Assembly: GCA_021781965.1 (NCBI GenBank)
Contig: JAJXVU010000003.1
Coordinates: 15,880 to 79,879, forward strand
Source: Pseudomonadota bacterium
GTDB taxonomy: Bacteria; Pseudomonadota; Gammaproteobacteria; UBA1113
DNA length: 64,000 nt
Direction of reading: 5' to 3'
The notes under the pieces were generated by a model, which saw only the letters and a program-made list of their open reading frames with translations, had not been told where the DNA came from and did not search any database. Positions within the stretch are counted from its first letter, which is position 1; every line of letters starts with the position of its first letter. Shown one piece after another: positions 17,796-17,958 of this stretch. The position numbers and the translations under genes are program-made.

Positions 17796-17958
17796 TAGGG
17801 CCTGTAGCCATTGGGTTTGTCGAAGCGAAAAATGAATATAGCCGGGCAAAATATTAGCAAATTTGAGGATAATATTGGGCAATATTTGACGATTGTTGCT
17901 AATATTTGGACCTCTTTATTCATTTTACAGCAGATCAACTCAATGGCTACAGGCCCTA
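17796..17958. repeat. 163-bp element bounded by perfect 18-bp terminal inverted repeats (MITE-like / cruciform)
   Basis: tagggcctgtagccattg at 17796-17813 and its exact reverse complement caatggctacaggcccta at 17941-17958. The AT-rich interior has nested inverted repeats (aatattagcaa / ttgctaatatt). Confidence 0.45.

Follow-up and report, generated by a model that had tools for sequence, protein, structure and literature searches.

Our definition of the bacterial MITE class is that of Delihas (2008; PMC2229807). The Correia elements of Neisseria, also called CREE or NEMIS, are about 105 to 155 bp long, have terminal inverted repeats (TIRs) of about 24 to 26 bp and TA termini, and duplicate a TA target (PMC2229807). 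The 107-bp RUP, or repeat unit of pneumococcus, provides the best precedent for mobilisation in trans, in this case by IS630-Spn1 (PMC2229807). The ERIC (IRU) sequences of enterobacteria are 127-bp imperfect palindromes with a contiguous TIR of only about 7 bp (PMC2229807). QMITE2 of Coxiella burnetii measures 150 to 190 bp, has TIRs, is mainly intergenic and occurs as both full-size and truncated, REP-like copies; its authors report no orthologues outside Coxiella (PMC5896051). The direct repeats of the two Coxiella families, QMITE1 and QMITE2, are 2 to 4 nt with variable sequence and 7 to 11 nt, respectively (PMC5896051).

We studied a 163-bp element in a 64-kb window, by which we mean the whole stretch of DNA that was analysed. 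The window is ordinary chromosome of about 41% G+C. Matches to an LbtU-family porin and to Legionella-type CpxA/LciS NCBIfam models, the sole basis for the assignment, suggest that the host is a Legionellales-like gammaproteobacterium. Very probably, positions 17796-17958 are a copy of a bacterial MITE, a type of non-autonomous DNA transposon, which inserted at a TA with duplication of that TA. A MITE was also the first-listed reading of the initial annotation of this DNA, and it is borne out by filled and empty sites, the TA duplication and dispersed relatives. Of the items in the definition of the class, the element shows a length below 200 bp, lack of coding capacity, TIRs, TA termini, a target duplication, A+T richness and a long stem-loop (PMC2229807). 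Its MITE family has not been described before. The element itself is most likely an ordinary selfish insertion and introduces no new kind of biology.

Judged by analogy, the element would work most like the Correia elements and RUP. Like the Correia elements, it is non-coding, forms a hairpin over its whole length, has long and internally deleted size classes, lies between genes and beside promoters, and has no identified transposase (PMC2229807). However, the two share no sequence similarity. The long Correia form has an IHF-binding site, whereas the IHF-binding consensus WATCAANNNNTTR has no match in our element when up to one mismatch is allowed. The hosts also differ, ours being Legionellales-like Gammaproteobacteria, and far fewer copies are known so far (3 to 5 exact termini per MAG). 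The TIR found here, TAGGGCCTGTAGCCATTGGGTT, appears to have no relation to the Correia repeat, and the element is presumably not a member of the Correia family.

RUP and the new element are both small, non-coding TIR elements that insert at TA (PMC2229807). The TIRs of RUP match those of a known IS, whereas none matching was found here; the host phyla are different and the sequences are unrelated. ERIC sequences share with our element an intergenic location, TA termini, a target-site duplication and the existence of shorter and longer variants (PMC2229807). However, ERIC insertions are often ancient and conserved between orthologous loci, while the insertion described here is recent and polymorphic, and there is no sequence similarity between the two. 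Taxonomically, QMITE2, compared here by its published description, is the nearest described case (Legionellales sensu lato). Its direct repeats of 7 to 11 nt have variable sequence, in contrast to the TA of our element (PMC5896051). For the Legionellales-like Gammaproteobacteria, where apparently no MITEs other than the Coxiella QMITEs have been reported, the present locus provides a documented case with both filled and empty sites and a duplicated TA.

Anatomy and predicted fold of the element

The main features of the element are as follows.

17796..17958, no strand: probable complete MITE copy, 163 bp including both terminal TA dinucleotides (net insertion 161 bp)
17796..17817, + strand: left TIR, 18 nt perfect or 22 nt with one mismatch (21/22)
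17937..17958, - strand: right TIR, which pairs with 17796-17817
17796..17797, no strand: left copy of the duplicated TA target, present as a single TA in the empty loci L032, L033 and L023
17957..17958, no strand: right copy of the duplicated TA target; the window minus 17798-17958 is collinear with L033
17814..17940, no strand: A+T-rich internal region of 34% G+C, an imperfect palindrome that includes the arms 17844-17860 and 17896-17912

The initial annotation had reported a perfect 18-bp TIR and judged it unlikely to have arisen by chance. Its coordinates were confirmed: the sequence TAGGGCCTGTAGCCATTG occupies 17796-17813, 17941-17958 is the exact reverse complement of it, and the inverted repeat lengthens to 22 nt at 95% complementarity (17796-17817 and 17937-17958). 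The 18-mer occurs only twice in the 64-kb window when up to three mismatches are allowed, and these two occurrences are the ends of the element. The chance expectation is 0.02 matches, and two matches were seen in none of 100 dinucleotide-preserving shuffles.

The 127-bp core is AT-rich, as had been observed, with 34% G+C versus 41% for the window. The inner repeat noticed within it (aatattagcaa/ttgctaatatt) is real, and belongs to a longer inverted pair with arms of 17 nt (88%), located at 17844-17860 and 17896-17912. The termini read TAGGG...CCCTA, and the longer end sequences are TAGGGCCTGTAGCC...GGCTACAGGCCCTA. We presume that the 22-bp termini are the ends bound by a transposase. Judging from copies of 65, 40 and 31 bp that keep the termini without the core, the core is evidently dispensable in the shorter family members.

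The whole 163 bp can be drawn as a single long imperfect hairpin, or palindrome, which is kept in all three distinct full-length copies. Its predicted RNA fold has a free energy of -73.5 kcal/mol for the + strand (z -8.9) and of -65 kcal/mol for the - strand (z -8.5), and the predicted DNA fold has one of -41.1 kcal/mol (z -9.0). In neither the RNA nor the DNA folds was the element bettered or equalled by any shuffle.

Filled and empty sites between mlaC and ORF114

The element lies in the spacer between mlaC and a divergent ORF of 114 codons (ORF114). Orthologous loci, designated here by L numbers, were gathered by looking up the exact sequences of MlaC and the 114-aa protein, together with four homologues. 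Four independent assemblies have a filled site, namely the window, L020, L021 and L022, the last of which comes from a sediment metagenome. The element in L020 and L021 is 100% identical to that in the window, and the copy in L022 is 95% identical. The same spacer occurs without the element in three to four related lineages, represented by L032, L033/L034, L023-L025 and the more distant L035. A single sample yielded both L033, which is empty, and L020, which is filled. Filled and empty alleles in related genomes from the same sample supply a clean marker for populations that occur together and have diverged recently.

We compared the junctions by deleting 161 bp (17798-17958) from the window in silico and re-aligning the result; MAFFT and global alignments misplace gaps at this position. 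The empty junction reads AAAGTCAT-TA-TAGC (TAGC/TGAT in L032, L033 and L023) and continues as TAGCC..GTAGAATTTTC. The filled junction, with the additional nucleotides in brackets, reads AAAGTCAT-TA[GGGCC...GGCCC-TA]TAGC, with a right flank of TAGCTGCCCTATAGAATTTTC. The window minus 161 bp aligns collinearly with L033 through the junction. Therefore, the difference is exactly the element plus one extra TA, a 2-bp duplication that is the minimum possible and that is the same as would result if an element carrying a TA at one end had inserted beside a TA. A duplication of the flanking TA at filled versus empty orthologous sites is thus the target-site duplication that the initial annotation had proposed to look for.

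A GCCCTATAG repeat at 17952-17971, at the right of the element, was considered as the footprint of an earlier copy. We rejected this interpretation because the right flank TAGCTGCCCTATAGAATTTTC is homologous to the sequence TAGCC(T/C)C..GTAGAATTTTC at the empty sites of L032 and L033.

The nucleotide identity of ORF114 to that of the window is 98.8% for the filled locus L022. For the empty lineages, it is 95.9% (L032), 89.3% (L023), 88.1% (L033) and 73.9% (L035). The filled pair of the window and L022 is nested among empty lineages, which makes the insertion a derived state that postdates the split from L032. These comparisons place its origin on the branch of the window and L022 and indicate that it is recent.

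The initial annotation had also listed a recombination site of a mobile element, which would here mean an att, dif-like or integron attC site belonging to something larger. Imperfect palindromes of this size do serve as attC sites, but the filled and empty loci differ by 161 bp only, with no cargo, cassette or nearby integrase. Moreover, the ends of the element contain no RYYYAAC/GTTRRRY core sites, and no tRNA adjoins it, the only tRNAs in the window being located at 8731-9047. An att-type site of a larger element is ruled out because everything else is identical between the filled and empty loci, and we give the recombination-site reading practically no credence.

Neighbouring genes and promoters

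To the left of the element, on the - strand, are mlaC (17107-17730, PF05494), an mlaB-like gene with a STAS domain, murA and a NIF3-family gene. To the right are ORF114 (18166-18510, + strand), an acyl-CoA-synthetase-like gene (- strand) and minC. Two promoter-like sequences flank the element.

17767..17795, - strand: putative mlaC promoter core ATGACT-17 nt-CATACT, read from the sequence and outside the element
18046..18075, + strand: promoter-like TTGATT-18 nt-TATACT for the 114-aa ORF, from a promoter scan and outside the element

The putative -35 hexamer of mlaC directly abuts the insertion point. We infer that ATGACT-17-CATACT is the mlaC promoter core, and it is kept at the same spacing in L023, L032, L033 and L035. 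The TTGATT-18-TATACT sequence, 88 bp to the right of the element, is conserved at every orthologous locus, even in the distant L035 and L036, and most likely serves as the promoter of ORF114. The element is therefore situated between two conserved promoter-like cores, both of which are intact. A+T-rich DNA upstream of the mlaC -35 was replaced, and an effect on mlaC transcription is possible.

This position, and especially the contact with the putative mlaC -35, is what would be expected of a host regulatory palindrome, i.e., an operator or cruciform common to the divergent mlaC and ORF114 promoters, as is the very strong potential to form a cruciform or hairpin. The initial annotation had proposed a regulatory cruciform, and had considered that relatives might share an identical, ancient palindrome. 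However, the element is missing in L032, L033/34, L023-25 and L035, where the promoter cores and genes are conserved, and the same element is found at unrelated loci. An ancient regulatory palindrome is ruled out because of this absence from orthologous promoter regions. In addition, divergence is more rapid in the element than in the spacer around it. When the window is compared with L022, 8 of 163 positions differ within the element, versus 4 of 272 in the neighbouring spacer (Fisher p=0.06) and 16 of 1318 over all flanks (p=0.003), although the faster divergence in L022 may partly reflect the mixing of paralogous copies by metagenome assemblers. (The mlaB row was left out of this comparison as an alignment-end artefact.) Given that the element diverges more than its flanks, it is not under stronger constraint than its surroundings. 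In sum, a regulatory function as the origin of this palindrome is extremely unlikely.

The comparison of orthologues made for the element also corrects the start of a neighbouring gene, which is 18166 and not 18031. The longer version has in-frame stops in its extension in L023, L035 and L036, whereas a GGGAG Shine-Dalgarno sequence precedes the ATG at 18166 in all orthologues. The promoter-like core at 18046-18075 is downstream of the ATG at 18031, which supports 18166 as the true start. Thus, the 159-aa gene call is over-extended. The start at 18031 had been suspected of being an artefact, which is correct, and of falling inside the element, which is not: it is 73 bp to the right of the end at 17958.

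The ORF114 protein is 100% identical in L023 even though the DNA is only 89% identical, and is thus under very strong purifying selection. It has no Pfam or NCBIfam match, and its homologues form only four clusters among 5.8 billion proteins, all from this lineage. It is a lineage-restricted small protein. As to the genes on the other side, mlaC and mlaB are followed directly by murA (window 15530-17730, - strand), and there is no mlaFED upstream of mlaC. Instead, upstream of mlaC are the MITE-bearing spacer and the divergent gene, and mlaC appears to head its own transcription unit here.

Dispersed copies of the family

A scan for the 18-mer in a genome collection with one genome per species gave 19 exact matches. 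Eight of these are confined to two Gammaproteobacteria MAGs, JAJNBM01 (three copies) and JBIPMB01 (five copies), where they occupy different intergenic loci. The other 11 are scattered over various taxa, have unrelated sequence immediately after the 18-mer and in several cases lie in coding regions; by our estimate, a collection this large would yield about that many chance matches to an 18-mer. A search of a metagenome collection found five matches, all of the chance type (unrelated downstream sequence, with some in coding regions). The window's own genome has one copy within the 64 kb available. Other copies of the 18-mer, which the initial annotation had thought worth seeking, are therefore present in related genomes.

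The same terminus bounds the family members in L001, L002, L004, L006, L009, L012, L017 and L019. L017 contains a full-length copy of 164 bp, with 85% identity and both termini, in the divergent spacer between rph and yicC. A 65-bp form in L001 consists of nucleotides 1-47 joined to the last 18. L006 and L009 share a 40-bp form (nucleotides 1-26 plus the last 14), although they differ in both genome and locus, and L004 contains a 31-bp form. The copies in L002, L012 and L019 are truncated ends. All nine copies are intergenic and start with TA, and the unrelated loci that hold the element include rph/yicC, sodB/aminotransferase and a position between convergent genes.

The short forms raise the question of whether the family is of the REP/REPIN type. 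In that case, palindromes of 31-40 bp would be the units, the 163-bp form would be a doublet, and spreading would proceed by RAYT via single-stranded hairpins. RAYT is an IS200/IS605-like Y1 transposase. The 31-40-bp members are indeed simple hairpins with stems of 13-14 bp that hold a GTAG tetranucleotide (CCTGTAGCC), and the 40-bp form recurs at two different loci, one in each of two genomes (L006 and L009). Coxiella QMITE2 likewise has REP-like short versions (PMC5896051). However, true TIRs bound the insertion and TA is duplicated, whereas elements moved by Y1 transposases leave their target unduplicated. Neither TIR arm is a hairpin by itself, which means that the 163-bp form is not two inverted REPs, and the GTAG is inside the stem at nucleotides 9-12 and not at an unpaired 5' foot. 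The 5' flanks of the copies have no conserved tetra- or pentanucleotide target, and no RAYT gene is present in the window or in any fetched sequence. Finally, alignment shows the short forms to be versions of the long form with nested internal deletions. We consequently view a REP/REPIN-type family as improbable.

In our preferred interpretation as a MITE, the family includes a second insertion that is informative. L012, from the JBIPMB MAG, is collinear with window positions 38363-47074 at about 80-95% translated identity, suggesting that JBIPMB is a fairly close relative. In the window, the sequence gggTAAttac-TA-tcATG forms the 8-bp spacer between genes for an Fe/Mn superoxide dismutase (39363-40019) and a class-III aminotransferase (40028-41188). 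The corresponding sequence in L012 is gggtaattac-TA-GGGCCTGTAGCCATTGGGTTT joined to aaaagaacgg. Here, a fusion through GGTTT microhomology connects the first 23 nucleotides of the element with the final ~120 bp of the aminotransferase gene, starting at window position 41063. This arrangement indicates a second, independent TA insertion in L012, for which the window represents the empty site. Relative to the window, the JBIPMB MAG has a deletion of ~1.04 kb (L012 2194-2216 versus window 40024-41067). In the JBIPMB lineage, this deletion followed the insertion and took the rest of the element and most of the aminotransferase gene. A deletion that ends inside the element explains 'solo' termini as deletion derivatives. 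The L012 case illustrates how such elements can nucleate gene-deleting rearrangements.

Coding capacity and tests for a structured RNA

The element is non-coding. The ORF at 17795..17983, which had been called a probable artefact, is one: it lies on the insertion and has neither a Pfam match nor a homologue. In general, the ORFs on the element (62 aa on the - strand and 53 aa on the + strand) have no Pfam match, and a search of 5.8 billion proteins, which could also have revealed other copies through spurious gene calls, gave no homologue of the 62-aa ORF. One reading frame runs through the element without a stop, and for 54 codons this is consistent with chance. For annotation purposes, the element accounts for the spurious 62-aa ORF.

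The element could alternatively be a gene for a structured non-coding RNA, such as a long-hairpin sRNA or a substrate of RNase III. The predicted hairpin is exceptionally stable on both strands, and Coxiella is known to have sRNAs derived from MITEs (PMC5896051). When the three distinct full-length copies are compared, compensatory double changes are observed at three base pairs, but these are set against nine broken pair-cells. The palindrome is thus broadly maintained, but the pattern constitutes weak evidence for selection on an RNA structure. No Rfam family matches the element. The only hits, to MIR1435 (24 bits versus a threshold of 94) and MIR8562 (22 versus 211), are to models of plant miRNA hairpins and are generic hairpin matches. 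A scan of the whole window with Rfam at gathering thresholds found only two tRNAs. We also found no convincing promoter or terminator of the element's own: a scan gave one promoter-like match, which is at chance level, and no terminators. Moreover, the shorter family members persist despite having lost almost the entire structure, and the pattern of presence and absence is that of an insertion. A dedicated RNA gene is accordingly very improbable.

Possible mechanism of transposition

Our inference that the element is mobile comes from comparing sequences. We envisage that a DDE transposase encoded elsewhere in the genome would bind the two identical ends in trans and perform cut-and-paste transposition with a 2-nt staggered cut at TA. 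The enzyme may be of the IS630/Tc1-mariner type, an assignment that we make from the TA duplication, by analogy with RUP/IS630-Spn1, and that has, at best, an even chance of being correct. The termini alone would be needed for movement, which would explain why internally deleted forms of 31-65 bp persist and recur at different loci. At the locus studied here, the insertion would have landed between the two promoter cores and left both intact. Most likely, it is tolerated and near-neutral, and is selfish rather than serving the host.

There is no transposase gene in the window, which has ~60 ORFs, and no transposase or autonomous element within 8 kb of any family copy. None of the family loci has a partner terminus at the distance expected for an IS. 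The solo end in L019 adjoins a gene for a CPBP-type membrane protease, not a transposase. Searches with blastn of the whole element against plasmids and phages gave no match, and those with the terminal 32-mer (E<=10) gave chance matches in unrelated genes and no IS ends. A scan of a viral-contig collection gave no match. MAG assemblies usually lose IS copies.

A broader claim would be that this is an active MITE family in an uncultured Legionellales-like freshwater/sediment lineage that is measurably reshaping gene expression and gene content, which we find rather unlikely. If it were true, the replaced DNA upstream of the -35 of mlaC-mlaB-murA might alter the expression of genes for outer-membrane lipid asymmetry, and the copy in a relative would have seeded the ~1-kb deletion by which a class-III aminotransferase gene was lost. 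On this reading, a transposase bounded by TAGGGCCTGTAGCC would represent a new IS group.

Other repeats and features of the window

The window also contains an abundant intergenic repeat family of ~125 bp that is unrelated in sequence to the element at 17796 and whose core hairpin is CCAGGAGTGTAGTACTCTACATGACTGG. At least 8 units, with 80-91% identity, lie in the window, and some of them form tandem arrays of 2-3. The family has no Rfam match at gathering thresholds; it may be REP/BIME-like, another MITE or an RNA.

8815-8942 (- strand), 26089-26376, 36988-37241, 38251-38366 and 55143-55271: ~125-bp repeat units in the window
L001 5576-5719 and L017 4070-4198: ~125-bp repeat units elsewhere, the family being shared with the JAJNBM MAG

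An inverted repeat at 26246-26376 was considered as a second MITE and rejected, as it is the junction of tandem ~125-bp repeat units.

A second long hairpin, which is single-copy, occurs at 31964-32092. It has 28-nt arms with 93% complementarity (TAGTCAGTGCGAGCAAGCGACACAATTC...) and TA at both ends, and is located between the ORFs 31437-31919 and 32389-33078, both without a Pfam match. It is possibly another MITE family. L037-L039, which are the same strain with the same spacing, provide no empty site. The same spacer contains a perfect A+T-rich palindrome of 17+17 nt with a 1-nt centre (AATATTATTTAATATGA/TCATATTAAATAATATT, window 32112-32146) that looks operator-like.

An ORF of 1201 aa (window 9729-13334, - strand) has no Pfam or NCBIfam match, and could encode an effector-type protein in this Legionellales-like genome. 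Tandem duplications are present in the spacers flanking the pyruvate dehydrogenase genes. The one at 53432-53615 consists of 2 x ~101 bp at 98.8% identity, and the one at 56520-56696 of 2 x ~89 bp at 81%.
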